Below are positions 3,460-62,539 of a stretch of 64,000 nt of DNA, in pieces. The DNA is from an uncultured delta proteobacterium. GTDB lineage: Bacteria; Desulfobacterota; Syntrophia; Syntrophales; CAMTWB01. The notes beneath the pieces are model-generated. The model made no database searches and was not told where the DNA came from. It saw nothing but the letters and a program-made list of their open reading frames with translations. The position numbers were made by a program, and so were the translations under genes. The stretch spans positions 1,023 through 65,022 of the forward strand of contig CAMTWB010000005.1 of the NCBI GenBank assembly GCA_947085375.1, read 5' to 3'. Each line of letters starts with the position of its first letter. Position 1 is the first letter of the stretch.

Positions 3460-3461
3460 CC

Positions 3462-4529
3462 ATGTCTTATCTACCGAGCGGCATCTATCACGAGTATTAC
3501 CGGCAGGATCATGCCTGGTGGCAGACCAGGTTCATAATGGCCAAGATGATTCTTCTTGGGTTGATAGTGTTTTATTTTATCCCCTACTGGGGCGGCCTGT
3601 ACCTGGTAGGCGTGGCCACCCTGATAATTTACACGGCCATGGGGGCCTTGGGGGTGCAGCTGCTAATTGGTTACTGCGGCCAGGTTACTCTGGGACATGC
3701 GGCCTTCATCGCAGTCGGGGCCTATACCAGTACCCTTTTGATGCTGCAGTTTAATGTTCCCTATCTGCTGAGTATTCTTTTTGGCGGAATTGCAGCCGGC
3801 CTCTGGTCCGTCCTCTTTGGCCTGCCCTCCGCCAAGGTTAAGGGCTTTTATCTGATCATGACTTCGCTTGCCGCCCAGTTCGTCACGGTGGATTTCATCC
3901 TGACCCAGTACGTAAGCCAGATTGGCGGACGAGGTCAGGCCTTTTCCCTGCCGCCCGGTAGCATTACGATTGGGCCGATAGTCTTGGACGACGACATTAA
4001 AATTTATCTCTTGGGCGCGGTTCTCATCGTGATTCTAACCATGGCGGTGGTAAACCTTCTCAGGTCGCGAGTTGGACGGGCCTGGATTGCAATCAGGGAC
4101 AATGACATTGCCGCCGAAACGATGGGCATCAATATCGTCAAGTATAAGCTCCTGGCCTTTTTCGTAGCCGGCTTTATCGGCGGCGTGGCCGGCGCTTACT
4201 GGGTTTCTACCCTGGCGGCGCTGAGTCCCGAACATTTTCCCTGGTTCTGGTCTCTGTGGCTGGTGGGTGTAATTCTCATCGGCGGCGTGGGCAGCATCCA
4301 CGGCGTCTTTTTTGGGTCGCTCTTCATGGTGCTGATCCTGGAAGCCCTGAAGTTTGCCCTGGTACCCCTGATGCCGTTTTATCCGGCGCTGGCGATGAAG
4401 TTTCTCTTTATCAAGGAAGCAGCCTTTGGTCTGGCCATCTGTCTCTTCCTCATCTACGAACCAAACGGTCTGGCCTATCGGTGGTGGCAGATCAAAAATT
4501 ACTTTAATTTGTGGCCCTTTTCCTATTGA
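3462..4529 (+). CDS. ABC transporter permease, LivM-type
   Basis: 355-aa polytopic membrane protein. The LLIGYCGQVTLGHAAF motif is typical of LivM-family permeases. Lies 2 nt after the preceding gene. Confidence 0.85.
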   Translation: MSYLPSGIYHEYYRQDHAWWQTRFIMAKMILLGLIVFYFIPYWGGLYLVGVATLIIYTAMGALGVQLLIGYCGQVTLGHAAFIAVGAYTSTLLMLQFNVPYLLSILFGGIAAGLWSVLFGLPSAKVKGFYLIMTSLAAQFVTVDFILTQYVSQIGGRGQAFSLPPGSITIGPIVLDDDIKIYLLGAVLIVILTMAVVNLLRSRVGRAWIAIRDNDIAAETMGINIVKYKLLAFFVAGFIGGVAGAYWVSTLAALSPEHFPWFWSLWLVGVILIGGVGSIHGVFFGSLFMVLILEALKFALVPLMPFYPALAMKFLFIKEAAFGLAICLFLIYEPNGLAYRWWQIKNYFNLWPFSY

Positions 4530-5949: not shown

Positions 5950-6765
5950 ATGGCCTTGAGTGGCGATCCGATATTACAGATAAACAGCATTGAAGTAAAG
6001 TACCACGAGGTGATCCTGGTGCTCAAGGGGGTTTCGATCGCTGTTCCCCGGGAGGGCATTGTTGCCCTCCTGGGGGCCAATGGCGCCGGCAAGAGCACCA
6101 CCTTGAAGGCGGTCTCTGGTCTCCTGAAGCATGAAGACGGCAAGGTAAGCGATGGCAGCATCGTCTTTATGGGCGAACGTATTGACAAAAAACAAGCGGA
6201 GGAGATTGCCAAATCGGGAATCATTCAGGTCATCGAAGGGCGTCTGGTCTTTGAGCACCTGACCGTAGAGCAGAATCTCATCGTGGGCGGGCACCTTAGG
6301 AAGGATCGAGCGGCAATCAAAAACGGCCTGGAGATGGTCTATCATTACTTCCCGCGCCTGAAAGAAAAGAGAAACGAAACGGCGGGTTTTGTCAGCGGCG
6401 GCGAGCAGCAGATGACTGTGGTGGGCCGGGCGCTGATGGCCAATCCGAAACTGATGCTCTTAGATGAGCCGTCTATGGGCCTGGCCCCGATGCTTATCGG
6501 TGAGATTTTCAACATCATCACCCGCTTGAATCAAGAGTCAAAAATAGCCATTCTCCTGGTAGAGCAAAACGCCAAGCTTGCTCTCAGTGTTGCGCCCTAC
6601 GCCTATGTGATGGAGAATGGCCGGATCGTCATGGATGATACAGCCGAGAAGCTTTCCCAAAACCCTGATATCAAAGATTTCTATCTCGGCCTGACTGACC
6701 TGGGGGCCAGGAAAAGCTTTCGGGATGCCAAACATTATAAACGCAGGAAACGCTGGATGACCTGA
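5950..6765 (+). CDS. ABC transporter ATP-binding subunit, LivF-type
   Basis: Walker A GANGAGKST, signature VSGGEQQM, Walker B LMLLDEPSMGL. RBS GGGGAGG. Confidence 0.88.
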   Translation: MALSGDPILQINSIEVKYHEVILVLKGVSIAVPREGIVALLGANGAGKSTTLKAVSGLLKHEDGKVSDGSIVFMGERIDKKQAEEIAKSGIIQVIEGRLVFEHLTVEQNLIVGGHLRKDRAAIKNGLEMVYHYFPRLKEKRNETAGFVSGGEQQMTVVGRALMANPKLMLLDEPSMGLAPMLIGEIFNIITRLNQESKIAILLVEQNAKLALSVAPYAYVMENGRIVMDDTAEKLSQNPDIKDFYLGLTDLGARKSFRDAKHYKRRKRWMT

Positions 6766-6778
6766 AGGGAGGGTTGAT

Positions 6779-7393
6779 ATGAAAAAAGCTGTTATGACCA
6801 TTTTGGTGTTATTCACAGTAATTGGCTTTACTGTGACGGTATGCGGAGCTGCCTCTCATGGAAAGCAGGCTGCCCCCGCCGAGAAACCAACGGCTGCCAA
6901 AAAAGTGGAGGCTCTTAAACAGCCAGTAATCACACTGGATCGGGTAGAGATCGCGGGCTACTGGGGCTATTGGTTTGATGCCCCCAACCGTCGGGCCGCT
7001 CCCCTGGCTTTGGCATTTATCTTTGCCTTGGAGAATCCGAACAAGGCGGCAGTGATGCTCGATGACCTCAAGTTTACCGTGGCTTTCGAAGATTTCGAGG
7101 TCAACACGGTAATGATCTATGATGACAACTATATTCCCGGTATGACCAAGGAGTACCTGCGGGTCAATGTCCTTCTTGACGCCTGGATAACCAATGGTCT
7201 TTTGGCCGTCACCAGCGGTCACCGGCTCCTGGAGATGAATGTCAAGGGGACGGATCTCCTGGAAAAATGGTGGAAGGGGGTGGCGGAATTCGATTTTCCT
7301 ATCGAAGTAAGGAACGGAACGGCAACATTCGAAGGCCCCAGGGAGCAGATAATCCGGGTTGCTTTTGGAGGGGTCTTCCCGCCTAAGAAATGA
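6779..7393 (+). CDS. Hypothetical exported protein (signal peptide/lipobox-like TVCG), family not recognised
   Basis: The 204-aa ORF starts 13 nt after the LivF-type gene's stop and has RBS GGGAGGG. N-terminal hydrophobic signal MKKAVMTILVLFTVIGFTVTVCGAAS. Confidence 0.6.
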   Translation: MKKAVMTILVLFTVIGFTVTVCGAASHGKQAAPAEKPTAAKKVEALKQPVITLDRVEIAGYWGYWFDAPNRRAAPLALAFIFALENPNKAAVMLDDLKFTVAFEDFEVNTVMIYDDNYIPGMTKEYLRVNVLLDAWITNGLLAVTSGHRLLEMNVKGTDLLEKWWKGVAEFDFPIEVRNGTATFEGPREQIIRVAFGGVFPPKK

Positions 7394-14241: not shown

Positions 14242-15228
14242 TTATCTGCTGCGGTGAATAAGCTGGGAAAGCAGAGCCAGCATATCAACCTCGCCGCGAC
14301 AGAATGATAGCTGGCGTCTGAGCTCTGCTCCACCGGGGAGTCTCTTGGTGTACCACAGCAGATGGGGGCGAAAATCCTTTATCGCCTGGTCGGGGCCGGC
14401 ATATTGTCTGGTAAGTTCATAATGGCGTCTGAGGACCCTCGCCCGTTCTTCCGCACTGGGCGCCTTGTCTGGCGCAGGCAGGGGCGCTTCGCCCCTGATG
14501 GCCCGCCCGGCATCGAGGAATATCCAGGGATTTCCCAAAGCGCCGCGGCCGATCATCACCCCGTCGCAGCCGGTCAGGTCAAGCATCTTCCTTACGTCCT
14601 GGCCGCTTCTCACATCGCCATTGCCGATAACCGGTATGTTCATAGCTTTCTTAACCAGGGTAATTACGCCCCAATCCGCAAGCCCGCCGAATCCCTGCCG
14701 GGCCGTTCGGGCATGGATCGTCAGTGCGTCCGCGCCGTTTTCCTGGGCGATGCGGCCAATCGCGATTGCATTTTGCTGTCCTTGATCCCAGCCGGAGCGG
14801 ATCTTTACTGTCAAGGGCAGACTGCTGGCCCGGCGCACTGCTTTGACAATCTGGCCGACCAGTTGCGGATCTTTCATTAAAGCCGCCCCGGCGCCGGTTT
14901 TGGTTACCTTGGGCACGGGACAGCCCATGTTGATATCCAGGAGATCCGCCCCCTGATCGGCCACGATCCGAGCGGCATCCGCCATAATCGCCGGGTCGGA
15001 ACCGAAAATCTGGACCCCCAGGGGCCGATCCTCTTCGGTAGAGGCCAAAAACGCAAATGTTCCCCGCGATCCCCTGGTCAAACCCTCGGCGCTAACCATT
15101 TCGGTAAAGGCCAGGCCGACGCCAAATTCCCGCAGCAAAAGCCGGAAGGGCAAGGTGGTGCTCCCGGCCAGGGGGGCTAAAAACAGATTATTCTTGAGAG
15201 ATAGCGTGCCGATCTTCATAGTCATCAT
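14242..15228 (-). CDS. dusB: tRNA-dihydrouridine synthase
   Basis: LAPLAGSTTLPFRLL and catalytic-Cys motif DINMGCPVPKV. ATG ATG at 15228. The longer tracked ORF reads into the adjacent repeat. Confidence 0.85.
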   Translation of the reverse strand: MMTMKIGTLSLKNNLFLAPLAGSTTLPFRLLLREFGVGLAFTEMVSAEGLTRGSRGTFAFLASTEEDRPLGVQIFGSDPAIMADAARIVADQGADLLDINMGCPVPKVTKTGAGAALMKDPQLVGQIVKAVRRASSLPLTVKIRSGWDQGQQNAIAIGRIAQENGADALTIHARTARQGFGGLADWGVITLVKKAMNIPVIGNGDVRSGQDVRKMLDLTGCDGVMIGRGALGNPWIFLDAGRAIRGEAPLPAPDKAPSAEERARVLRRHYELTRQYAGPDQAIKDFRPHLLWYTKRLPGGAELRRQLSFCRGEVDMLALLSQLIHRSR

Positions 15229-15232
15229 CTTG

Positions 15233-15390
15233 ACGACACGGTAAAAAGACCGGATGCTGCGTTGCGCTGCATCCCTCGTCACTGCGGCGTACCAAAAGTA
15301 CGCCTCATTCCTCAGGATTTGCGCGCCTTGCCTGCGGTCTTTTTACCGCGTCGTCCCCAAATTATAGTTTTACCGACTTTTTACCGCTTT
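15233..15390 (+). mobile_element. Family B nested-palindrome MITE-like element, copy 1
   Basis: Outer arms GACGACACGGTAAAAAGACCG and CGGTCTTTTTACCGCGTCGTC, central GGCGTAC-N6-GTACGCC hairpin, tail CCCCAAATTATAGTTTTACCGACTTTTTACCGC. Flanked by a perfect 9-bp direct repeat ATCATCTTG (15224-15232 and 15391-15399). Confidence 0.85.
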
Positions 15391-15391
15391 A

Positions 15392-16147
15392 TCATCTTGG
15401 CCTGGCCGTAAGGATCATCTCCGCCCGCCTCAGGTCATCGGGGCTATTTATTCCCAAGAGCTCATCCGGATCAGCCGTAAGGAAGGAGGACATGGGAACT
15501 CCGCGATGCCGGCCGATCGCGATTATGTCCGTCAGGTAGTACTCCCGCTGGGAGTTGGAGCGGCCGATCTTTGTGACCGCGTCAAAAAGGAAGGGGCTTT
15601 CCACACAATATAGCCCCGTATTGATCTCGTGGATGTTTTTCTCTTCCGGGGTGGCGTCTTTTTCTTCCACTATTCTAATGAGGGCGTTATTGTCATCTTT
15701 CACCACCCGGCCATATCCGCCGGGATCAACCAGGCACGCCGTAAGCAGAGTCAAGACCGCCGCCTGTTGGCGATGAAAATCAAGAAATTGCCGCAGGGTA
15801 TCGCTCGTGAGGAGCGGCACGTCGCCGCAAAGGATGAGGACGGAACCACAGAAATCAGCTAAAGCCTCTTGAGCCGAAAGGACGGCGTGGCCGGTGCCCA
15901 ATTGGGGAGTCTGCTCGACAAAGACCAAATCCTCTGACGGAAAGGCCGCCCGAACAGCGTCAGCCCTGTGACCCACTACCGCTACTATCCTTTCCGCTCC
16001 AATTTTCCGGGCCGCATCCAGCACATAGGCCAGAAGCGGCCTCCCCCCCAGCGGCTGCAGCACCTTCGGCAGGTCCGATTTCATCCTGGTTCCTTTTCCG
16101 GCAGCCAGGATCAGGACAGCAACTTTTTGGTCGTCACTTCGTTTCAT
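15392..16147 (-). CDS. Sugar-phosphate nucleotidyltransferase resembling the GlmU N-terminal domain only
   Basis: LAAGKGTRMKSDLPKVLQPLGGRPLL signature. Only 251 aa, so there is no room for the left-handed beta-helix acetyltransferase domain. Confidence 0.75.
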   Translation of the reverse strand: MKRSDDQKVAVLILAAGKGTRMKSDLPKVLQPLGGRPLLAYVLDAARKIGAERIVAVVGHRADAVRAAFPSEDLVFVEQTPQLGTGHAVLSAQEALADFCGSVLILCGDVPLLTSDTLRQFLDFHRQQAAVLTLLTACLVDPGGYGRVVKDDNNALIRIVEEKDATPEEKNIHEINTGLYCVESPFLFDAVTKIGRSNSQREYYLTDIIAIGRHRGVPMSSFLTADPDELLGINSPDDLRRAEMILTARPR

Positions 16148-18838: not shown

Positions 18839-18999
18839 AGGCTACTTATTAATACTTTTAACAGATTCAAGGAAAAAAACAAATCCCATTTTTCTCCCTG
18901 GGCTAGGGTAATTATTTGCCGTCCGGTTTCGCTTTTGATTGACGGCAAGGCTCTTTTGGGCTATTTAAAGCGTGGCCACAGCGGCAAGGAGCGGACGAT

Positions 19000-20343
19000 A
19001 TGACCAGGGTATTATTAATCGGCAACGGGGCCAGGGAACACGCCCTGGCGGAAGCGATAATGAGATCAAGGCGCAGCCCGCGGCTTTTTGCCTGCATGAA
19101 GGCGAAAAACCCCGGCATCGCCCTTCTCGCGGAAGCCATAATGCTGGGCGACTACGCGGATATCAAGGCCATCACGGCTTTTGCCCAGGCCTCCCGGGTG
19201 GATTTCGCCCTGGTGGGGCCGGAAGATCCTCTGAACAACGGCGTGGTCGATGCCTTAAGGGATGTCGGCATTCCGGCCGTGGGCCCCAGCAAGGCCCTGG
19301 CCCGGCTGGAAACATCCAAGTCATTTACCCGGGACTTGCTTTCCAAATATGCCATCCCGGGAAACATCAAATACCGGGTATTCTCCAATATGACCGGCGT
19401 GGCGGAATTTCTCGCCAGCATTCCTGAGGTGGTGATCAAGCCCGACGGGCTGACCGGCGGCAAGGGTGTTTTGGTACAGGGGGAGCATTTTCAAAGCCGG
19501 CAAGAGGCGCTTTCGGCCTGTCGCCAAATATTATCCCATCACCCCCGCTTGATAATAGAGGAGAAGCTCGACGGCGAAGAATTTTCCCTCCAGTGCTTCT
19601 GCGACGGCCGGCACGTCCTGGCGATGCCCGCAGTACAGGATCACAAGCGCCGCTTTGCCGATGATACCGGGCCAAACACGGGGGGGATGGGTTCCTATTC
19701 AATGGCCGACCACTCTCTTCCCTTCCTGAGAGGCGGAGAAATAGCCGATGGTCTGGCCATTACCAGGCAGGTGGCGGCGGCCCTCCACCAGGAGACCGGC
19801 GAGTATTACCGGGGGATCATGTACGGCGGGTTCATGGTTACCCGGGACGGGGTGCGCCTGCTGGAGTACAACGCCCGCTTCGGCGACCCGGAGGCGATGA
19901 ACGTCCTGCCCCTGCTTAAGACGGATTTTATTGACGTCTGCCGGGCCGTCATCGCCGGCGCCCTGGAGGGGATGGAAGTCCTCTGGGATAGGAAGGCCAC
20001 GGTTTGCAAGTACCTGGTGCCGAAAAATTACGGCCTCGCCGCTGATGCTTCCGCACAGGCGGCTTCAGGCTGTGATCAGAGGATCACCATCGCTGATATC
20101 GGCCGGGCCGGGCTTTACTTTTCTGCAGTGGACGAACGGGAAGACGGCCTTTACTTGACCCGCTCCCGGGCGGTGGGTCTGGTCGGAATTGCCGCAACTC
20201 TGGAAGAGGCAGAGGGGATCGCCGAAGAAGCGTCAGCGGCTGTTACGGGCTGGGTCGATCATCGGCGGGATATCGGTACCGCGGCTCTTATTGAAAAACG
20301 CATCCGGCACATGGAAGCGCTTAGGGGCTATTGCCCGCGGTAA
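19000..20343 (+). CDS. purD: Phosphoribosylamine-glycine ligase
   Basis: VLLIGNGAREHALAEA N-terminus and ATP-grasp core VVIKPDGLTGGKGV. Confidence 0.9.
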   Translation: MTRVLLIGNGAREHALAEAIMRSRRSPRLFACMKAKNPGIALLAEAIMLGDYADIKAITAFAQASRVDFALVGPEDPLNNGVVDALRDVGIPAVGPSKALARLETSKSFTRDLLSKYAIPGNIKYRVFSNMTGVAEFLASIPEVVIKPDGLTGGKGVLVQGEHFQSRQEALSACRQILSHHPRLIIEEKLDGEEFSLQCFCDGRHVLAMPAVQDHKRRFADDTGPNTGGMGSYSMADHSLPFLRGGEIADGLAITRQVAAALHQETGEYYRGIMYGGFMVTRDGVRLLEYNARFGDPEAMNVLPLLKTDFIDVCRAVIAGALEGMEVLWDRKATVCKYLVPKNYGLAADASAQAASGCDQRITIADIGRAGLYFSAVDEREDGLYLTRSRAVGLVGIAATLEEAEGIAEEASAAVTGWVDHRRDIGTAALIEKRIRHMEALRGYCPR

Positions 20344-33895: not shown

Positions 33896-34078
33896 GGGTC
33901 TGCTGCAAAAATGTTGGTATTCTGTTCTTGCAGAGACTTATCCCCCCTTTCCCAAAGGGGGGCAGGGGGGATTTATAATAAAAGCAAGAGGTTATTTATT
34001 ATCCGTCAAATCTCCCCCAACCCCTCTTTTCTAAAGAGGGGAGAAAAACCGCCCAACCCATAATTTTGTCGCACACCC
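33896..34078. mobile_element. Family A MITE-like element, unexpanded copy
   Basis: Collinear with 9585-9916 but with one CCCCCCTTTCCCAAAGGGGGGCAGGGGGG core. The right end CATAATTTTGTCGCACACCC (34059-34078) matches the other copy's right end. The left end is more diverged. Confidence 0.7.
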
Positions 34079-34087
34079 GCTAATATT

Positions 34088-34275
34088 GATGACTTCGTAA
34101 AAAGTCTTTTCTGCGGTTCGACAGGCTCACCACGAACGGAATAAAGTAAATGATTTCAACTTGACCATCGTTCGCCCTGAGTCCTGAGCTTGCCGAAGGG
34201 TCGAAGGGTGATTTATGACTTTTTACCGCTTCATCAATATTCATCCCGGACTTTTTACGAAGTTACCAATCGTCC
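34088..34275 (+). mobile_element. Family B element, variant interior (copy 7)
   Basis: Termini GATGACTTCGTAAAAAGTC (34088-34106) and GACTTTTTACCGCTTCATC (34217-34235), plus an extra half-site to 34275. The interior is replaced by a TCGACAGGCTCACCACGAACGG ... GTTCGCCCTGAG..GCCGAAGGGTCGAAGGG module. AATATT occurs on both flanks. Confidence 0.7.
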
Positions 34276-34292
34276 CTACAGTGCCAATCGGC

Positions 34293-35069
34293 TCAGCTGA
34301 CTATCCTGGATTTCAACAGTCCCCCGTTGATGGCGCCGGAAAAACCGGCGGCCAACTCCAGCCTCAGGGCGGTAATCTCTTCCTCTGGGAGCATCTCACC
34401 CCTCATGATTTGTGGCAGCCTGTCGGCCAGTTCTTTTGCCCGGGGCAGAAAGGGGAATTCGCCCAGGTACCTGTCGCCCAGATAACTTTGAAAGTATTCC
34501 CGGTTGATTTTCTTTACCGCATCCGGTTGGCCGTCTAAGTCATTGAGGATCACCCCCAGCGTTTCAATTCCCCGGCCGTCAAGCGCCTCCAGGGTCAAGA
34601 GGGTATGATTGATGGTTCCCAGCCGATTGGGCGCCACCAGCAGGGTCGAAAGTTTCAGATCGGCTATCAGATCGATATTGAATATCTTCTCCTCCAGAGG
34701 AACCAGTACGCCGCCTGCCCCCTCCAAAAGAAAAAAGTGATCTCCCCGGAGATAATCTTGGATTATTGGGAGCACTTTAGCATAATTCAACGGGTTATTA
34801 TCAAGAAAAGAACTCTGGTAGGGCGCCAGGGGGAGCGAGTAGCGAAAGGGCACAATTTCCTCGATTGGTTCCCGAAGGCGAAGCAAAAGCCGGTAGAGAG
34901 TGCCATCTTGGGGAAGTAATTTTTGATTTACCCTGGGACAGCCTGTTTCGAACGGCTTGACCACCCGGATGGGAAGGCCAGCTTCCTGCAGATAAATGCC
35001 GAGGGCGACCCCAACCATGGTTTTACCAGCCCCGGTGTCGGCACCGATGACAAAAACACCCCTCATCAA
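34293..35069 (-). CDS. bioD: Dethiobiotin synthase
   Basis: P-loop GADTGAGKT. The start overlaps the bioA stop. Confidence 0.88.
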   Translation of the reverse strand: MMRGVFVIGADTGAGKTMVGVALGIYLQEAGLPIRVVKPFETGCPRVNQKLLPQDGTLYRLLLRLREPIEEIVPFRYSLPLAPYQSSFLDNNPLNYAKVLPIIQDYLRGDHFFLLEGAGGVLVPLEEKIFNIDLIADLKLSTLLVAPNRLGTINHTLLTLEALDGRGIETLGVILNDLDGQPDAVKKINREYFQSYLGDRYLGEFPFLPRAKELADRLPQIMRGEMLPEEEITALRLELAAGFSGAINGGLLKSRIVS

Positions 35070-36427
35070 CGACTCCTTTCGTAACTCTGAATTGACCGGT
35101 AGGTGATGTCTAAAAGCTTTTTAAGCTCTCTTGCGCTAATAGCCAGTGGCGGCATCAGCACAATCACATTTCCCAAGGGTCTTAAGATTGCGCCCAGTTG
35201 GCGGGCCTTTAGTATTACCTTCACTCCTGCCTGCTCTTGGAGGGGAATTTCGGCTCGGCTGTCCCTGTGGGCGGTAAGCTCGATTCCCACCATGAGACCC
35301 TTTTGCCTTATATCGCCGACAATTTCCAGTTCCATAAAACGCTTGAGTCCTGCCGCCATAAGGTCACTCAGTTCCAAAAGCCGGTCCAGGAAGTCTCTTT
35401 TGCGCAAAAGCCTGATGTTCTCCCGGGCCACCTCACAGGCCAGGGGGTTGGCCGTATAGGTATGGCCGTGAAAAAAAGTCTTGGTCTTTTCGTATTCCCC
35501 CAAAAAGGCCTCATATATCTTTTCGCCGACCAGCGTGGCGGCCAGGGGTAAATACCCACCGGTAATTCCCTTGGCCAGTGCCATCAGGTCCGGCGAGACT
35601 CCAGAATGTTCCGCAGCGAACATTCTGCCGGTGCGGCCGAAACCGGTCGCCACCTCGTCAAAAATCAGCAGGGTCTGATGGACGTCGCAAATTTCTCGGA
35701 CCCGGCGGACAAAACCCGCAGGCTGGGTTATCATGCCGGCCGCGCCCTGCACTTCCGGCTCCAGGATGACCGCCGCAATTTCGTCCGATTTTTCCTTAAG
35801 CAGCCGATCCAGTCTGTTTAGACAGGCCAAGCGGCAGTCGGGAAATGTTTTTTCTATCGGGCAGCGCCAGCAGCAGGGACAATGGGCGCGGTAGGTTGGA
35901 AAAAGGAGGGGATTAAATATCTGATGGAACAAATCAATGCCGCCCAGGCTGACTGCCCCGATGGTGTCGCCGTGATAGGCATTGGTAAAGGTTACAAAAC
36001 TGGTTTTGTTTTTTCCCTGAAACTGCCAATATTGGAAGGCCATTTTCAGGGCTATTTCTACCGCGGTGGAACCGTTGTCGGAGTAAAAAACCTTGCTTAA
36101 GCCGGCGGGGGCGATGCTGATCAGATCGGCGGCCAGCTGAATCGCCGGCACGTTGGAAAGGCCCAAAAAGGTGGAGTGGGCGACCCGGCTAAGCTGCCTC
36201 CTTACGGCCCGATCCAGCTCGCCTTTACGATGGCCGTGGACATTTACCCACAGGGAAGATACGCCATCGAGGTACCTGTTGCCATCGGTGTCGTACAGAT
36301 ATGATCCCCTGGCCCTTGCAATGACCAGAAAATCCATCCGCCGCCAGTCCTGCATCTGGGTAAAGGGGTGCCAGATATATTTTCTGTCCAGCTCTCTCAA
36401 ATCTTCGGTGTTTGTCAAGTCATTCAT
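35066..36427 (-). CDS. bioA: Adenosylmethionine-8-amino-7-oxononanoate aminotransferase
   Basis: Class III aminotransferase motifs ([12 protein letters not shown]) in bio operon context. 453 aa. Confidence 0.9.
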
Positions 36428-36440
36428 ATTCCAACCTTGA

Positions 36441-36618
36441 CGACTTCGTAAAAAGTCCGGATGCGGTGTTGCGCTAAATCCCTCCCCCGCCTTCGCGGGG
36501 GCAGGCTTGCGGCGTACCCGGAAGTACGCCTCATTCCTTGTGATTTGCGCGCCTTGCCTGCGAATTTTTTACAAAGCCGCCCCCAAGCTTACGTTTTGCC
36601 GACTTTTTACCGCTTCAG
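36441..36618 (+). mobile_element. Family B element, copy 2, inserted between bioF and bioA
   Basis: Termini CGACTTCGTAAAAAGTCCGG and GACTTTTTACCGCTTCAG, with an extra CCCCCGCCTTCGCGGGGG hairpin in the centre. Perfect 9-bp direct repeat CAACCTTGA at 36432-36440 and 36619-36627. Confidence 0.85.
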
Positions 36619-37771
36619 CAACCTTGATAAAGGCTGCCAGCGCCGATTCCATATCTTCCGGACTATGAGCAGCCGACGCGGTGATTCTTATCCGGGCGCC
36701 TCCGTTGGGTACGGTGGGCGGCCGGATCGGCTTCACCAAGAGCCCCTCTTTCAAGAGCTGCGCCGCCAGCAGAACGGCCTTTGCGGTTTCTCCCACCATC
36801 AGGGGAATGATCGGCGTTTCCGTGGGTCCGATCTGAAACCCCATCTTGCGCAGGTTATAAAGCAGGGTATGTGTGTTGTCAAAAAGCTTTTCTCTTAGCC
36901 GGGGACTATTTACCGTCAGGTCAATGGCGGCAATATTGGCGGCCAGGATGGAGGGGGGAAGGGCGGTGCTGAAGATCAAACTGCGGGCGCGGTTGACCAA
37001 AAAATCGATCAGATCATTGCTTCCGGCGACAAATCCGCCCAAACTGCCGAGGGCTTTGCTGAATGTTCCCACGGTGGCATCAATTTCGCCGACAATGTTC
37101 AAATGCTCAGCCAGGCCCCCACCAGACCTGCCCAAGACTCCAGTGGCGTGGGCGTCATCGACAATCAGCAGGCAGCCATATTTTTTTCTGATTGCAACCA
37201 GCCTCTCCAAGGGAGCCAGATCGCCATCCATGCTGAAAACGCAATCGGTGATAACAATGGCCTTGCCCGAAGCAGGACGAAGGGATAGCAACTCTTCCAG
37301 ATGATCCATATCATTGTGCCGATAGACGAACAGTTGCCCGCGTGACATCCGGATACCGTCGATGATGCTGGCATGGTTGAGCTCATCGGAAAATATGCAA
37401 TCCCCCTTGGCGGCGATCGCTGAAATCACTCCTGTATTTGCCATGTAGCCGGATGCAAACACGACTGCGGCCGCTGTTCCCTTGAAACGGGCGATTCTCT
37501 CTTCCAACTGTTCGTAGAGTTCATGGTTGCCGCAGATCAAGCGGGAGGCCCCGGCTCCGACACCCCAGCGGCGGGTTGCTTCAATCGCCGCTTCCTTGAG
37601 CTCCGGCTGTTGCGACAGGCCCAAATAATCGTTGCTGGAGAGGTTCAAAAATAGTTTGTCGCCGCTGGCAATCCTCCCCTCGGGCAGTTGCACGACGGGC
37701 TGGAGAAACCGGTTCAGGCCTTGGGCATGCAGGTTATTGATAACTTGACGGAAAAAATGGTGGTCGTTCAT
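36569..37771 (-). CDS. bioF: 8-amino-7-oxononanoate synthase; the last 16 codons and the stop are repeat-derived
   Basis: PLP-enzyme motifs DDAHATGVLG and TFSKALGSLGG. The C-terminal AEAVKSRQNVSLGAAL is encoded inside the family B element. Confidence 0.88.
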   Translation of the reverse strand: MNDHHFFRQVINNLHAQGLNRFLQPVVQLPEGRIASGDKLFLNLSSNDYLGLSQQPELKEAAIEATRRWGVGAGASRLICGNHELYEQLEERIARFKGTAAAVVFASGYMANTGVISAIAAKGDCIFSDELNHASIIDGIRMSRGQLFVYRHNDMDHLEELLSLRPASGKAIVITDCVFSMDGDLAPLERLVAIRKKYGCLLIVDDAHATGVLGRSGGGLAEHLNIVGEIDATVGTFSKALGSLGGFVAGSNDLIDFLVNRARSLIFSTALPPSILAANIAAIDLTVNSPRLREKLFDNTHTLLYNLRKMGFQIGPTETPIIPLMVGETAKAVLLAAQLLKEGLLVKPIRPPTVPNGGARIRITASAAHSPEDMESALAAFIKVAEAVKSRQNVSLGAAL

Positions 37772-37772
37772 T

Positions 37773-38738
37773 TCAGGGGAGTTCCAGGCCCAAGTCGATA
37801 ATTAGTCGGCGATCATCTTCGGGGTTTCTCCCCTGGGTGGTAAGATAATTTCCCGTCATAAGTCCATTGGCTCCTGCCAGCAGCAGCAGGGGATGTGTTT
37901 CCCTTAGGTTCAGCATCCGGCCGCCGCAGATGATTATATCCTTATCTTTCAATATCAGGCGGTATATCGCCAGGGTTTTCAATATTTCCAGCGGCTCCAG
38001 GCAGCCGAAGTTTTCCAGGGGGGTCTTCATTATCGGATTGAGAAAGTTCATCGGGACGGAATCCACGTTCAGATCGGCTAGGGTCAAGGCCAGTTCAATA
38101 CGATCCCGACGGCTTTCGCCAAGCCCGAAGATGCCGCCGCAGCAGACGTAAAACCCTAGTTCTTTGGCGGCTTTTACGGTATCTACATCCTCCTGGTAAT
38201 CATGGGTGCTGCAGATGCGGGGGAAGAAATTGCGCGATGTTTCGAGATTGTGATGATACTTATTCAGGCCGGCCTGCCTGAGTTCATGGAGAGTGTCGGG
38301 ATCGAGAATTCCCAGCGAGGCGCAGGGCGCAATGCCCAGTTGTTTTATCCCGGCAATGGACGTCGTTATCGTCGTGATCTCATCCTTGTTTTTTATCCCC
38401 TTGCCACTGGTGACAATCCCAAACTCGCGGGCCCCGTCCTGGTGGGCCTTCTGGGCGGCGGCTACTATTGTTTCTTCCGGCAGAAGCGGATAGGTGGAAA
38501 TATCGGTTGGGTAATGGGACGACTGGGCGCAGAATTTGCAGTCCTCGCTGCACCGGCCGGACTTGGCATTGACGATGGAGCAAAGGTTCACCTTGCGGCC
38601 CTTATATTTGAGTCTGACCTGGTGAGCAGCGGACAGCAGATCGAGAAAATCTTCCGGGGGCAGTTCGTAGAGTTCGAGGGCTTCCCCGACTGTGGGCAGC
38701 CACTGGTCAGCAAATGCTTTTTTAATATTGTCATTCAT
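37773..38738 (-). CDS. bioB: Biotin synthase
   Basis: Radical-SAM cluster motif CSEDCKFCAQ. 321 aa. Lies 1 nt upstream of bioF. Confidence 0.9.
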   Translation of the reverse strand: MNDNIKKAFADQWLPTVGEALELYELPPEDFLDLLSAAHQVRLKYKGRKVNLCSIVNAKSGRCSEDCKFCAQSSHYPTDISTYPLLPEETIVAAAQKAHQDGAREFGIVTSGKGIKNKDEITTITTSIAGIKQLGIAPCASLGILDPDTLHELRQAGLNKYHHNLETSRNFFPRICSTHDYQEDVDTVKAAKELGFYVCCGGIFGLGESRRDRIELALTLADLNVDSVPMNFLNPIMKTPLENFGCLEPLEILKTLAIYRLILKDKDIIICGGRMLNLRETHPLLLLAGANGLMTGNYLTTQGRNPEDDRRLIIDLGLELP

Positions 38739-38844
38739 GGTTTTTCGTCCTTTAACCTATCAGTGATTGATCGGAATGCGTCAAACGGGGGGCGCAGGCT
38801 CCCGGCTCCAGGTTAAACAAGAAGGCAGGGAATGAAGTGCTTAC

Positions 38845-40218
38845 TCATTTCAACCGCGGCGACCAGGAGGGGGAAAGGTAATTATCCGGGCCCTCCTGAA
38901 GGATTCGTAGATTTGTTCCATTGGCATTAATAATGGCAATCTTGGCTTTGCCGTCTTTTTTTGATGTAAAGGCGATGTATTTGCCGTCGGGCGACCAGGA
39001 GGGGCTCTCATTGTTGCCTTCGGTCGTAAGCTGGATGGGGTTGAGTCCGTCTTCGTCTACACTGAAGATTTGGAAGCGGCCCCCCACCATGCCCTCATAT
39101 GCGATTTTGCCGCCCTTCGGCGACCAGGAGGGAGAGGTGTTATAGTTGCCGTCGAAGGTCAGCCTCCTTACGTTGCTGCCGTCAGCATTCATGACATATA
39201 TCTGGGGTGAACCAGCCCGGTTCGAAACGAAGGCGATTTGCTGGCCGTCCGGTGAGTAGCAGGGCGACACGTCGATTGCAAAATGATTGGTCAGGCGGGT
39301 TAGCTGCAAGCCGTCAATGTTCATGCTGTAAATTTCTTCATTGCCGTCGATACTTAAAGTCAAAAGCAGCTTTTTGCCGTCCGGCGACCAGGTTCCCGGC
39401 AGATTAATTCCCCGGAAGCCCATGATCTTCCTGGTTGTCCCGGCGCCAACCAGGGAACGGAAGTACAGGTCAGGATTGTCCTCCTGGAAAGAGGTAAAGG
39501 CCATGGTCTTGCCATCGGGGGACCATTTGGGCGCCAAGAGCAGCGAAGGGACTTCGATGATCTTGGTCAGGTTCGTGCCGTCGAAGTTAATGACGGAGAT
39601 TTCTGAAGTCTTGCCTCTTCTGCTGACAAAGGCGATTTTGGAATCATAAATGCTGCCGTCTCCGGTGAAGTTGGCCAGCACCTCGCTTGCGAAACGCTGC
39701 ACCATAATTTTACGGTCCTCCGGGCTTCCGGAATAGCGTTTTCCCACCAGGAGCTCCCCCTTGATTAAGTCATAAAGGCGCAGCTCGACGCTCACCTCCG
39801 GCCCGAGCTGCTGGATGCGGCCATTTATCAGATACTCGGCGCCGATTAAGCGCCACTCAGTGAATCTGATGAAGTCCAATGGTGCACGGTTGCGGTCAAC
39901 AGCGGTTTGTTTTCCCGCCTGGATGTTGAATATGCCGGTGATATTGAGCAGACGGGTTAGCTCATTGGAAAACCATCCCAGCATTTCATCCGTGGGCAGT
40001 CTATCCTGGCCCTGTCTTTGGAAATCGGAGATAGCCAGGGGGATTCTTTGGAAGGTCGGCGAGTCGATGTCGATGTAAACTCTGTTGGCCAATCCTTCCG
40101 AGACGCCCGCCACTAAAATTATGGCCAAGGCTATGATTATCGCGGCAACGTTGCCTTTGGGCTTTCGTATCGTCATATTATCTCTCATGGTCATTACCAA
40201 TGGTCTCCTTTTTTGCAA
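38845..40218 (-). CDS. tolB: Tol-Pal system beta-propeller protein
   Basis: Repeated SPxWSPDG blades, N-terminal signal/anchor and tolQRA context. Confidence 0.88.
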   Translation of the reverse strand: MQKRRPLVMTMRDNMTIRKPKGNVAAIIIALAIILVAGVSEGLANRVYIDIDSPTFQRIPLAISDFQRQGQDRLPTDEMLGWFSNELTRLLNITGIFNIQAGKQTAVDRNRAPLDFIRFTEWRLIGAEYLINGRIQQLGPEVSVELRLYDLIKGELLVGKRYSGSPEDRKIMVQRFASEVLANFTGDGSIYDSKIAFVSRRGKTSEISVINFDGTNLTKIIEVPSLLLAPKWSPDGKTMAFTSFQEDNPDLYFRSLVGAGTTRKIMGFRGINLPGTWSPDGKKLLLTLSIDGNEEIYSMNIDGLQLTRLTNHFAIDVSPCYSPDGQQIAFVSNRAGSPQIYVMNADGSNVRRLTFDGNYNTSPSWSPKGGKIAYEGMVGGRFQIFSVDEDGLNPIQLTTEGNNESPSWSPDGKYIAFTSKKDGKAKIAIINANGTNLRILQEGPDNYLSPSWSPRLK

Positions 40219-40232
40219 AGCTGGGGAAACTT

Positions 40233-41015
40233 TTACCGCCTCATCAAATCAGAGGAGTGAAATCGGATGCCGATTTCAATTCCCCCCTTGGCCCATTCCG
40301 GCAGGGGAGGGAGGGGGGAAGCCTTCTTTATCGCTCGGATGGCCGCTTCATCGAACTGATTATTACCTGATCTTTCCTCAAACGACAGGTCCGTAACCGA
40401 GCCGTTGGCGGCCAGTTTAACTACCACCGTGGCCGAAGTGCTGCCCTTGGGCGCATGCAGGGCGGGGATGGTCCAATGTCCCTTTATTGCCGTCCATAGC
40501 TGGGTAATGTAGGCCTGCATCATGGCGCTCATTTCCGCATCGGTCACAACGGGGTTGGCGGCGGGTTCCCCTTTGCTTTCCTCCCTAGCCGAGCCTCTGG
40601 CCGAAGGCGTGGACGGGGCAGGGGATGAAGATGGCGGTACGGACGCCGCCGCCTTGGCTCTTAATTCGTCGGGAATCTTTGGAATCGCGCCGGTATCTTT
40701 TCTGGCGATCTCAATTGGCCTCAATGGTTCCGTAGGCGTCAAGTCGATTGGTTTGCGAAGGGAAATTGCCGGATGCCGTGATAGCGTCTCCGGCATGAAG
40801 CTTCTGCTGCCTATCTTTTGAAGATTGCGGGCTGCGGAGAGGCTGGCGGAACTGACCAACTCCACTGTATGAATCGGGCCGAAGGTCCATTTCGGTTTTT
40901 CCCTAAAGGAGACGCTTACGGCCAGATATAAAAACAGCAGGTGCAACATGACGGATGCCAATAGCATACCACCCATTCGCATTCCCGCTCGGTTTTTAAA
41001 AGTATCGGAGAACAT
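40233..41015 (-). CDS. tolA: TolA/TonB-family energy-transducer protein
   Basis: N-terminal TM anchor, Pro/Ala/Ser-rich linker and a TonB_C/TolA_C-like C-terminal domain. Positioned between tolR and tolB. Confidence 0.65.
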   Translation of the reverse strand: MFSDTFKNRAGMRMGGMLLASVMLHLLFLYLAVSVSFREKPKWTFGPIHTVELVSSASLSAARNLQKIGSRSFMPETLSRHPAISLRKPIDLTPTEPLRPIEIARKDTGAIPKIPDELRAKAAASVPPSSSPAPSTPSARGSAREESKGEPAANPVVTDAEMSAMMQAYITQLWTAIKGHWTIPALHAPKGSTSATVVVKLAANGSVTDLSFEERSGNNQFDEAAIRAIKKASPLPPLPEWAKGGIEIGIRFHSSDLMRR

Positions 41016-41440
41016 TACTTCGAAACCTCCGGTGGGTCGGTTATCATGCCCAGTTTATCCACGCCCGCCTTTCTTGCCTCAGCCATTACCTGCACCACGA
41101 AACCGTAGGGGATGTTCTTGTCGGCCCGCAGGTACACTTCCCGGTCTATCCGGCGATCAAATACCTTTTCCAGAGTCCCCCTCAATGCCGGCAGAGTGGT
41201 CTTTTCGCGATCGATAAATATTTCCTGTTCTTGGTTTATCGTCAAAATCAGTTTTTCCTCATGGACATCGATGCTTTTGGCCTTAACCCGTGGCAGATCC
41301 ACATCAATTCCCATCTGGAGCATCGGAGCGGTAACCATAAAAATTATCAGCAGAACCAATATCACATCCACCAACGGAGTGACATTTATTTCCGCAATCG
41401 CCCTTCTCCCATTAAATTTGTTTCGGCTAAGTCTTCCCAT
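41015..41440 (-). CDS. tolR: Biopolymer transport protein ExbD/TolR
   Basis: AEINVTPLVDVILVLLIIFMV motif. 141 aa. Confidence 0.85.
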   Translation of the reverse strand: MGRLSRNKFNGRRAIAEINVTPLVDVILVLLIIFMVTAPMLQMGIDVDLPRVKAKSIDVHEEKLILTINQEQEIFIDREKTTLPALRGTLEKVFDRRIDREVYLRADKNIPYGFVVQVMAEARKAGVDKLGMITDPPEVSK

Positions 41441-41454
41441 ACGGCGTCATTTCT

Positions 41455-41613
41455 GACGACACGGTAAAAAGACCGGATGCGGCGTTGCGCTAAATCCTTC
41501 GTCACTGCGGCGTACCAAAAAGTACGCCTCATTCCTCATGATTTGCGCGCCTTGCCTGCGGTCTTTTTACCGCGTCGTCCCCAAATTATAGTTTTATCGA
41601 CTTTTTACCACAT
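41455..41613 (+). mobile_element. Family B element, copy 3, filling the tolQ-tolR spacer
   Basis: Near-identical to copy 1. Perfect 10-bp direct repeat CGTCATTTCT at 41445-41454 and 41614-41623; the right copy contains the tolQ stop codon. Confidence 0.88.
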
Positions 41614-41615
41614 CG

Positions 41616-42365
41616 TCATTTCTTCGGCTGGTGGCGCTCGACAATATTTAAAAATTCAGAGGAAAAATTATCCATCTCGATGGAAATGTTTTTTATGCGG
41701 TTGAGGTAGTAATTGTAGAAAATAACCGCCGGGATGGCAGCCGCGAGTCCCGCCGCGGTGGCAATGAGGGCCTCCGATATTCCGGGAGCTACTACGGCCA
41801 GGGTAGCCGAACCGCGGGCGCCGATGTTCTGGAAGGTGTTCATAATTCCCCAGACGGTGCCAAAAAGCCCGATGAAGGGGCAGGCGCTCCCGGTGGTGGC
41901 CAGGAACCCAAGCGCCCTTTCCAGCTTGCCAGTTTCGGTATCGCAAGCGCGGTTCATTGCCCGTTCCAACTGATCCATTATCCGGAGTTCAAAGAGGGGT
42001 GAGGTCGCCTCCGGCGCATCTTTGGCAGTGGTATCCTTCCCCGTCTTTGCTATTTTCAAAAGCTCGCCGTATCCCGAGCGGAATACTTCGGCCAGGGTGG
42101 AATTGTGATATTTTTTTGCCAAAGGAAACATGTCTGCAATCCGCGTATTTCTCGCGTATATCGCCAGGAAAGATTCGTTTTCCCTCTTTACCGCTCTTAG
42201 CTGGAAATATTTCATGAAGATTATGGCCCAGGAAATTATCGAGAAAATCAGCAAAAGCGCCAGTACGAACTGAACCATCGGACCGGAGGCAAAAATCATA
42301 TCTATTACGCTGCCGTGGAAATTGCCACTTCCTGACGCGCCAGCCACGGATAAAATCTCTTTCAC
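41616..42365 (-). CDS. tolQ: MotA/TolQ/ExbB proton-channel protein
   Basis: 249 aa with 3 TM segments and a conserved GLFGTVWGIM motif. Confidence 0.88.
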   Translation of the reverse strand: MKEILSVAGASGSGNFHGSVIDMIFASGPMVQFVLALLLIFSIISWAIIFMKYFQLRAVKRENESFLAIYARNTRIADMFPLAKKYHNSTLAEVFRSGYGELLKIAKTGKDTTAKDAPEATSPLFELRIMDQLERAMNRACDTETGKLERALGFLATTGSACPFIGLFGTVWGIMNTFQNIGARGSATLAVVAPGISEALIATAAGLAAAIPAVIFYNYYLNRIKNISIEMDNFSSEFLNIVERHQPKK

Positions 42366-42402
42366 TATATCATCTCCTTATAAACTTTAGATTCTAGGCC
42401 CG

Positions 42403-42720
42403 ATGAAGCGGTAAAAACTCCCCCCGCCCCTCCCCCGGTGGGATGGGGCAGAAGGAGTTGATGGTAAGCATCCGATATATCAACTATTTTCACCCTTGCC
42501 CCAACACTCCCCCATCAAGGGAGAGGGGGCCTTTTGACTTTTTACAGTGCCATCAGGTATGACGAGGCGGTAAAAAAATCCCGATATTGCGTTGCGCTGC
42601 ATCCTTCTCCTGAGGCTTCATCACTCGGATAGGGGGCCTGCGCGCCTTGCCGCAGCCTGTCTTGGCGAAGGCCGGGGGCCTTTTTACTAAGCCGTCCCCA
42701 GGCCAGCGGTTTTTGACTTC
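42403..42720 (+). mobile_element. Family B elements, two adjacent units with divergent interiors (copy 4a/4b)
   Basis: Unit a runs from GATGAAGCGGTAAAAACTC (42403) to GACTTTTTACAGTGCCATC (about 42555) and has a G/C-rich interior. Unit b runs from GACGAGGCGGTAAAAAAATCC to GGCCTTTTTACTAAGCCGTCC and retains TGCGTTGCGCTGCATCC and GCGCGCCTTGCC blocks. Confidence 0.65.
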
Positions 42721-44874: not shown

Positions 44875-45068
44875 GATGACACTTTCCCGAAGTCGTCATT
44901 TTCGATGAAGCGATAAAAAGTCGGCAAAGCTGTGATTTAGGGATGGCGCTGTAAAAAGCGCCTTAAGGCAAGGCGCGCAAATCATGAGGAATGAGGCGTA
45001 CTTCTGGGTACGCCGCAGTGACGAAGGATTTAGCGCAACGCAGCGTATGGACTTTTTACAGTGTCATC
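44875..45068 (-). mobile_element. Family B element, inverted orientation (copy 5)
   Basis: It is the reverse complement of the canonical layout. The tail GATGAAGCGATAAAAAGTCGGCAAAGCTGTGATTTAGGG comes first, then the palindrome ending GGACTTTTTACAGTGTCATC. Confidence 0.8.
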
Positions 45069-45150
45069 ATTTTTCATTTGACAAAAGAGAAAACATGTCT
45101 ATTGTAGGCCAAATTCCGCCGTTCATGAAATGGCAAAAAAGGAGATAATC

Positions 45151-58194: not shown

Positions 58195-58260
58195 GATATA
58201 TTTTTTTACATCGGTTTGCGCCGCCCAAGAGATGCCTCAGCCGCGGCGCTTTACAACCTT

Positions 58261-58285
58261 GACGACACTGTAAAAAGTCGGCAAA
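58261..58285 (+). repeat. Solo family B terminus
   Basis: GACGACACTGTAAAAAGTCGGCAAA matches family B termini and lies 5 nt from the thiolase stop codon. A second scrap, GACGACACTTTCATC, is at about 58123-58140. Confidence 0.6.
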
Positions 58286-58290
58286 CGCGC

Positions 58291-62329: not shown

Positions 62330-62437
62330 GAGGTGAGGGTAAAAATAGCGATATGCCGAATGATTAAGCCCCCTACCCCCTCCCCCTGGCCCTTCCAACA
62401 GGGGAGGGGATTGAGGACTTTTTACCGCACCGTCACC
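62330..62437 (+). mobile_element. Family B element, short variant (copy 9)
   Basis: GGTGAGGGTAAAAATAGC ... GGACTTTTTACCGCACCGTCACC termini. The C/G-rich interior (CCCCTACCCCCTCCCCCTGG...CAGGGGAGGGG) is similar to unit 4a. Confidence 0.6.
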
Positions 62438-62539
62438 CTTGACATACATCATAGCCATTCCTATATTAGCGTCGTTGCTGCAATCAGCATGCTGATTGGG
62501 GTGTTTGCCGGAAGGACAACCGGCAAGTCGGAGAAACAA

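Follow-up and report, generated by a model that had tools for sequence, protein, structure and literature searches.

A miniature inverted-repeat transposable element at the bioF/bioA junction of an uncultured Syntrophales bacterium

The biotin genes bioB, bioF, bioA and bioD of an uncultured delta proteobacterium (Syntrophales, CAMTWB01; assembly GCA_947085375.1) lie on a stretch of 64,000 nt from contig CAMTWB010000005.1, which is called the window throughout and to which all positions refer unless another sequence is named. [quoted passage not shown] We regard it as highly probable that a non-autonomous DDE-type MITE inserted at this position in the window lineage after its split from the sister species, and that the insertion was tolerated and roughly neutral. 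In this scenario the element would have landed in the target tCA-AGGT-TGg (gene sense), 10 nt before the ancestral stop of bioF. GI, the final two residues of BioF, gave way to 16 residues encoded by the element, and bioF now ends at a TAA supplied by it. A spacer of 141 nt, predicted to fold into a strong hairpin, now lies between bioF and bioA, and the duplicated AAGG, predicted to be single-stranded just 3' of this hairpin, would allow bioA to initiate on its own. The event would represent a tolerated, near neutral insertion and not an adaptation.

The insertion and its empty site

The minus strand of the window carries tolB-bioB-bioF-bioA-bioD in this order. All five genes were called by NCBIfam equivalog models above their curated cutoffs:

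38845-40218, minus strand: tolB (NCBIfam)
37773-38738, minus strand: bioB, biotin synthase (NCBIfam), which stops 1 nt ahead of bioF
36569-37771, minus strand: bioF, 8-amino-7-oxononanoate synthase (AONS), 400 aa; TIGR00858, 470 bits (cutoff 426), residues 20-380
36619-36572, minus strand: bioF codons 385-400, followed by the stop TAA (36571-36569), all of them element sequence
36568-36428: present spacer between bioF and bioA, 141 nt
35066-36427, minus strand: bioA, adenosylmethionine-8-amino-7-oxononanoate transaminase, 453 aa; TIGR00508, 538 bits; ATG at 36427-36425
34293-35066, minus strand: bioD, dethiobiotin synthase (NCBIfam); its start overlaps the bioA stop (TGATG)

The corresponding empty site is present in the sister species, which is represented by its contig in GCA_964457235.1 (L001, the closest relative) and by a second genome (L112). 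The gene order tonB-tolB-bioB-bioF-bioA-bioD of L001 matches that of the window, and a blastn comparison of both sequences is collinear at about 82-83% identity with a sole break, namely some 175 extra nucleotides in the window. The blastn blocks flanking this break overlap by 12 nt in L001 at the insertion point, where the empty target reads TCAAGGTTGGGATATGA and the wider empty site GTCAAGGTTGGGATATGAAC. In both genomes bioF and bioA share a 4-nt ATGA stop/start overlap, a feature of translationally coupled pairs (bioF 6001-7161 and bioA 7158-8513 in L001; bioF 3001-4161 and bioA 4158-5513 in L112). An earlier note, made from the window alone, had predicted exactly this arrangement from an excision in silico. 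Removal of 36441-36627 yields a BioF ending in ...AAFIKVGI and a TGA (36426-36424) that overlaps the ATG of bioA (36427-36425). This result was reproduced, and the sister species bears it out with the 4-nt overlap and a terminus ...FVKVGI. The excised window sequence at the junction is ATATGAATG, and the span across the empty allele is GCCTTTATCAAGGTTGGAATATGAATGAC. The 22-mer TCAAGGTTGGAATATGAATGAC, which would match the filled and the empty allele alike, gave 0 hits in a metagenome scan.

The comparison of BioF proteins is in accordance with the empty site. Our set comprised 123 BioF-family proteins including P0001, which is identical to the protein of the window. The AEAVKS tail occurs in P0001 only and in none of the other 122. 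The proteins of the sister species (P0002, P0121 and P0122) have 386 aa, are 83% identical and end in ...AAFVKVGI (for P0002 the C-terminal end reads ...ESALAAFVKVGI). Other homologues terminate in ...VGI or, mostly, in ...VG(R/K)EMxLI, with variable tails. Since matches to solved structures of AONS, KBL and SPT stop at query residues 377-388 and the NCBIfam profile match at residue 380, the element-encoded tail is placed beyond the conserved AONS fold by homology.

Three further copies from the window and 40 copies from other genomes align with the full length of the inserted element, whose anatomy is as follows:

36438-36620, plus strand (family orientation; antisense to the bio operon): MITE copy, 183 bp, termini TGACGAC...TTCAGCA
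36432-36440: left 9-bp repeat CAACCTTGA, made up of CA from the flank, the duplication ACCT and TGA as the element's first three bases
36619-36627: right 9-bp repeat CAACCTTGA, composed of the last two element bases CA, duplication ACCT and flank TGA
36434-36437: left target-site duplication ACCT, based on the family-wide end definition TGAYG...YRTCA
36621-36624: right target-site duplication ACCT, on the same basis
36438-36457, plus strand: left terminal inverted repeat TGACGACTTCGTAAAAAGTC
36601-36620, minus strand: right terminal inverted repeat, reverse complement TGCTGAAGCGGTAAAAAGTC
36564-36581, minus strand: internal third copy of the terminal motif ATTTTTTACAAAGCCGCC, which pairs with the left repeat and closes the long hairpin
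36484-36501: extra GC-rich stem-loop CCCCCGCCTTCGCGGGGG, recognized in the alignment and restricted to a subfamily (also L024 and L042)
36526-36558, plus strand: most conserved core block of the family ACGCCTCATTCCTnnnGATTTGCGCGCCTTGCC
36435-36438, minus strand: Shine-Dalgarno-like AAGG, read from the sequence, 7 nt upstream of the bioA ATG

The perfect 9-bp direct repeat on the plus strand (CAACCTTGA at 36432-36440 and 36619-36627), on which the earlier note had built its case, is real, but only four of its bases represent the true duplication. The family-wide statistics of the ends (35 of 60 copies, see below) identify ACCT as the duplicated target, and the other five bases of the repeat are best read as element-terminus bases that coincide with the preferred target. 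It is possible to read the duplication as 6 bp (A-NNNN-T) instead of 4, which leaves the excision product unchanged.

The 16-residue tail AEAVKSRQNVSLGAAL (36619-36572), which replaces the ancestral GI, and the stop codon are provided by the repeat, as had been claimed: the bioF segment 36619-36569 lies within the multi-copy element. The TAA is located in the internal third terminal motif, within GTAAAAAA, and belongs to the conserved GTAAAAA motif. The interpretation of this tail as an exaptation-like case is not supported. The three frames that enter this copy run into a stop after 0, 12 or 3 codons at the left end and after 1, 16 or 3 codons at the right end, and bioF entered the element in its longest-reading and least favourable frame. 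Every frame into either end of the element stops within 0-16 codons, and the tail is a passive accident of the insertion frame. It is confined to one lineage and one protein cluster, and there is no support for its exaptation.

The repeat family and its candidate partner

Copies of the family are numerous within the window, which holds at least four full and at least five partial or variant copies. Apart from the one in the bio operon they comprise:

15231-15394: full copy between two minus-strand open reading frames (ORFs)
41454-41618, plus strand: full copy with the duplication TTTC, between exbB (41616-42365) and exbD (41015-41440)
44903-45069, minus strand: full copy
34087-34236, plus strand: related MITE with the same terminal repeats, another interior and the duplication ATAT, downstream of bioD
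about 42389-42700: variants with the same ends and other interiors
58251-58290 and 62370-62447: solo ends that carry the terminal motif GTAAAAAGTC

The interiors of the last two groups (42389-42700, 58251-58290 and 62370-62447) are C-rich or G-rich hairpins, e.g., CCCCTCCCCCTGG...CAGGGGAGGGG, which suggests that several MITE subfamilies are served by one type of transposase. The solo end at 58251 shares the left flank CAACCT with the bio copy. At 15231-15394 the right terminal repeat holds the end of the upstream ORF (15392-16147). The downstream ORF (14242-15282) has, in its longest reading, a start within the element, and its annotated start may thus be repeat-derived.

Beyond the window, a core 33-mer with 30 specified bases was found in more than 107 places among the matches listed. 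The genomes concerned are Smithellaceae/Syntrophales, Desulfobacterales and Nitrospirota metagenome-assembled genomes (MAGs), among them long-read contigs as large as 1.9 Mb, and single genomes contribute dozens of matches. Conservation of the interior amounts to about 90% between phyla, and lineage-specific subfamilies exist, such as CCATATG...CCTATGG in Nitrospirota. The alignment of 44 distinct copies provided the family consensus TGACGGCTTCGTAAAAAGTCCGGATGCTGCGTTGCGCTGCATCCTTCGTCAtTGCGGCGTAC-loop-GTACGCCTCATTCCTCAGGATTTGCGCGCCTTGCCTGCGGAnCTTTTTACGAAGCCGTC-(about 25 variable nt)-GACTTTTTACGAGTTCATCA. Family copies are non-coding and 150-205 bp long; 1-nt indels in the alignment show that they share no conserved ORF. 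All full copies bear at both ends a terminal motif of about 20 nt, TGAYG.....GTAAAAAGTC, which each element carries three times, once at either end and once inside in inverted orientation. A GC-rich stem-loop of 18-26 nt is present at one and the same core position in three copies from different genomes (36484-36501, L024 and L042); it represents either a subfamily marker or a nested mini-insertion.

With the ends set as TGAYG...YRTCA, an exact 4-bp target-site duplication flanks 35 of 60 copies, and the next commonest exact length, 3 bp, was seen in three. Of 34 reconstructed targets, 33 have A at position -1, 31 have T at +1 and 21 have C at -2, while +2 is occupied by G or A, and their composition argues for a palindromic target preference (t)CA-NNNN-T(g)(a). 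About 63% of the copies are located between co-directional genes. Relative to the genes on either side they show no preferred orientation, with 29 sense-sense, 21 antisense-antisense and, for the two mixed arrangements, 16 and 13 cases. Palindromic targeting, combined with selection against insertions inside genes, would let copies accumulate at gene junctions. Short non-coding copies, terminal inverted repeats, a duplication of fixed length, dispersed copies and empty sites together identify the family, by its sequence features, as a MITE. A search of 34000-39500, which includes two copies, against Rfam 15 at E <= 1 returned no match for the element, and its sole hit was a chance miRNA elsewhere in the segment. 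The family consensus had no blastn match among the PLSDB plasmids, and a literature search with conserved sequence strings of the family found no paper.

The comparison with the sister species also provides a relative chronology. In L001, exbB and exbD are 6 nt apart and lack the copy at 41454-41618. The MITE at 34087-34236 has an orthologous insertion in L001 (9813-10022) with the same ATAT duplication; judged from this shared site, the insertion downstream of bioD is the older one and common to both species. The pattern of occupied and empty sites indicates activity of the family earlier as well as later than the species split, and it makes the insertions at bio and exb the younger ones. The stop TGA of exbB is located within bases that match the element end, and ExbB is unchanged. 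A further difference between the two species concerns a purD (GARS) block, which is found at 18928-19968 in the window, about 21 kb from the exb-tol-bio cluster, and directly adjoins this cluster in L001 (3-1043). This displacement points to a rearrangement that sets the two species apart, in a region where these repeats are dense.

A candidate for the autonomous partner emerged when the retrieved loci were screened for pairs of terminal motifs that face each other at a distance of 1-3 kb. A MITE-rich Smithellaceae MAG (L080, JAXMLI010000005.1) harbors at positions 2-1903 an insertion sequence (IS) of 1902 bp, whose 19-bp ends TGACGCCCTCGTAAAAAGT...ACTTCTTACGAGGGCGTCA match those of the MITE and enclose one ORF of 594 aa with the Pfam domains DUF772, DDE_Tnp_1_6 and DDE_Tnp_1. 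The best NCBIfam hit of this ORF is IS1182 (NF033551; 149.4 bits, E = 1.5e-43, profile positions 40-486 of 488). A partner of this kind is plausible because the 19-bp ends are the same and the palindromic target preference fits, and the MITE is probably mobilised in trans by an IS1182-like transposase. Two points count against this assignment: the score does not reach the NF033551 cutoff of 270 bits, which makes the L080 transposase a distant IS1182 relative at best, and a single autonomous copy was seen, of which the locus does not include the left flank, where a duplication would lie.

Other origins were considered and rejected. An IS3 or IS21 parent had been guessed from the TG...CA ends and a duplication of 3-5 bp, and an IS3-derived MITE in view of TGA...TCA ends and 3-4 duplicated bp, but the only IS found with matching ends is IS1182/IS5-like with a transposase of the DUF772/DDE_Tnp_1 type rather than the OrfAB, rve-domain transposase of an IS3-type partner. 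A RAYT-mobilised REP/REPIN or an IS200/IS605-derived PATE, which would lack a duplication and sit beside a fixed short motif, does not agree with the variable 4-bp duplication of most copies, and a true 9-bp duplication of the IS4, IS1 or IS903 kind does not agree with the 4 bp obtained across the family. Between the facing solo repeats at 58260 and 62435, a distance of 4.2 kb, lie genes for a thiolase, a methyltransferase and a DUF1015 protein and no transposase, and repeat pairs 1.9-3 kb apart in L041, L067, L073 and L025 contain only ordinary genes. A small ORF in the core (ATGCTGCGTTGCGCTGCA...) was dismissed on account of 1-nt loop indels among the copies.

Consequences for the bio operon and alternative explanations

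The bioA start is now located 141 nt downstream of bioF, after a long hairpin, exactly as the earlier note had described. The minus-strand RNA from 36630 to 36425 (206 nt) folds at -81.5 kcal/mol (z = -4.6 versus shuffles), and the last 14 nt before bioA, AAGGUUGGAAUAUG, are predicted to be unpaired together with AAGG and ATG in both the minimum-free-energy and the centroid fold. AAGG lies in the bases that are repeated on both sides of the element, and bioA therefore kept its ribosome-binding site, since this motif was duplicated with the target. The proposed uncoupling of bioF and bioA stands as a physical separation only; with AAGG retained, bioA would probably be translated by independent initiation and not by termination-reinitiation coupling. 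A separate promoter of bioA-bioD near 36428-36440 or inside the element, which the earlier note had proposed to look for, was not detected, as a scan of 36000-37000 found no sigma-70-like site. A consensus scan of the same segment, which allows loops of only <= 8 nt, found no canonical terminator. Transcription probably reads through the element.

The strength of selection on the operon was estimated from the comparison with L001. The dN/dS values of bioB (0.168), bioF (0.173), bioA (0.118) and bioD (0.195) resemble those of tolB, exbB and exbD, but they average the whole divergence since the species split and not the time after the insertion alone, a reservation that belongs with the adverse points gathered below. 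The ratios are indicative of purifying selection on bioA and bioD, with no relaxation downstream of the insert. Physical separation of bioF and bioA is tolerated in the clade, as a natural spacer of 99 nt (4189-4287) in the Logan assembly of ERR4904396 (L111; BioF P0003, 64% identical) indicates. This spacer holds an unrelated palindrome, GCTGAAGGTGTTTAGGCTGAAG...CTTCAGCCTTCAGTCTAAAC, which may represent another repeat family at the same junction. Low and similar dN/dS values, a tail beyond the conserved fold, the variability of this end in homologous BioF proteins, the retained AAGG in a stretch predicted to be unpaired, the lack of promoter- or terminator-like sites in the scanned 36000-37000 and the spacers in L111 and in the exb pair are the reasons to regard the insertion as tolerated.

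Several observations weigh against a neutral insertion of a purely selfish element, and some of them also speak for a different explanation, in which the element would be a module selected for regulation. Its A5-hairpin-T5 core would work as a terminator (partial, perhaps bidirectional), as a processing site for RNase III/E or as a hairpin that stabilises the mRNA. BioB and BioF would then be set to other levels than BioA and BioD, and the uncoupling would be adaptive, an exaptation. The interior of the family is more conserved than its termini in the 44-copy alignment, and this high conservation of the core extends across phyla. The stem formed by the left repeat and the internal motif covaries, with double changes at nine pairs (outer helix, columns 2-24 with 166-189): 44 double-change cells were counted versus 12.7 in shuffles, and 0 of 500 shuffles scored as high. 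The outer-helix structure was specified by hand for this count, since RNAalifold on full-length copies did not recover the long-range hairpin. Mismatches are strand-asymmetric (69 A.C versus 9 G.T in family orientation), and because of this asymmetry better pairing as RNA or ssDNA, with more G.U or G.T wobbles, is expected of the complementary strand, the one found in the bio mRNA. Conserved interior and covarying stem are not obviously explained by a purely selfish element. The predicted hairpin of about 125 nt is bracketed by A5 and T5 runs (GTAAAAAG...CTTTTTAC) and could act as a partial bidirectional terminator that the loop-limited scan missed. Operon read-through and independent initiation of bioA are moreover points that we infer. 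The strong predicted fold, the share of copies (63%) between co-directional genes and the influence of published MITEs such as Correia and ERIC elements on mRNA processing (see the discussion in PMC5896051) would also suit a regulatory role. Nevertheless, we consider such a role unlikely. The orientation of the copies is unbiased (29 sense versus 21 antisense), no terminator-like site was detected with loops of <= 8 nt, the sister species manage with a 4-nt overlap, L111 has an unrelated spacer, and the bio insertion is found in a single lineage only. The covariation includes the right-terminal third motif and equally fits co-evolving transposase-binding sites. The broader form of the idea, for which we see only a small chance, is that the repeat represents a cross-phylum (Thermodesulfobacteriota and Nitrospirota), sequence-conserved and structure-constrained hairpin of about 125 nt on a transposon chassis that repeatedly retunes formerly coupled gene pairs such as bioF/bioA and exbB/exbD. 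If this were true, a hairpin module in operon junctions would act as attenuator, processing site or stabiliser, and hosts would reuse it for stoichiometry.

Two further scenarios concern the history of the junction and not its function. The element might be ancestral and precisely excised in the sister species, which would make ...VGI and ATGA the derived state. A perfect direct repeat could indeed allow deletion by recombination, and the sister species carries family members, but this order of events is very improbable: outgroup BioF proteins at 56-65% identity keep the Gly after ...F-x-x-(V/C) (CGEK, CGKK, CGRR, VGRE) and none has the tail, and no element is present in the bioB-bioF-bioA-bioD cluster of L110. 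L001 has neither the bio nor the exb insertion but shares the one with the ATAT duplication, a distribution that argues for acquisition in the lineage of the window. That a repeat was wrongly joined to the bio operon during assembly or binning is less probable still, although the repeat is of high copy number, short-read assemblies break there, and an independent Logan assembly of run ERR3478705 (L002) ends inside it. This assembly is 99.93% identical to the window and has the same transition from bioF into the element, with the tail of 16 codons; a duplication such as a real transposition leaves is found at both junctions, and the flanks are perfectly collinear with L001. A tolerated MITE insertion in the window lineage stays the preferred explanation.

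Comparison with known elements

The fusion of a MITE to the 3' end of a gene is a kind of event that is already documented, whereas the present family and locus are new and were not found in the literature searched. The ERIC/IRU (RU-1) and RU-2 repeats of Enterobacteriaceae replace the stop at the 3' end of genes and add C-terminal residues beyond the conserved domain (Delihas 2007, PMC2759123). They resemble the present family as small, imperfectly palindromic, multi-copy intergenic repeats that supply a stop, but they are unrelated to it in sequence, termini, target and host phyla. For ERIC no transposase partner is known, whereas here a 4-bp duplication in CA-NNNN-TG is made and an IS1182-like IS shares the ends. 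Copies of QMITE1 and QMITE2 of Coxiella burnetii reach into functional genes, with 3'-end overlaps of 1-50 bp (Wachter et al. 2018, PMC5896051). One example is enhC of the Dugway strain, in which an in-frame QMITE provides 33 C-terminal residues and the stop, and an effect of the stable stem on the mRNA is proposed there (PMC5896051). The QMITEs belong to another family and host, and they were not reported at a junction of overlapping genes in a cofactor operon.

The Correia elements of Neisseria and the Rickettsia palindromic elements are not known to share sequence with the present family. Both are MITE-like, hairpin-forming and co-transcribed, sometimes coding, and located in operons or ORFs; Correia elements duplicate TA, and Rickettsia palindromic elements insert in-frame inside ORFs. 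With respect to the candidate partner, some members of the IS1182 family, which includes IS1272, are reported to target palindromic sequences (PMC5678879), which matches the tCA-NNNN-TGa observed here. IS1272 differs in that it replaces its stem-loop target without a duplication, whereas the present family makes one of 4 bp. What distinguishes the family is its defined palindromic target, its spread over a wide phylogenetic range and its likely partner of the IS1182 kind.

The insertion itself is an ordinary event with little consequence for the bio operon. It is a clean example of how a MITE rewrites a C-terminus and breaks a stop/start overlap without disabling an essential-cofactor pathway. 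For annotation it means that repeat-derived tails are present in the BioF of 400 aa and in ORFs at other places that enter the repeat, and for the assembly of MAGs that short-read contigs break at the repeat, as L002 does. The family is an abundant one that has spread through anaerobic sediment and bioreactor lineages, and its conserved, covarying core is the feature that deserves specialist attention.

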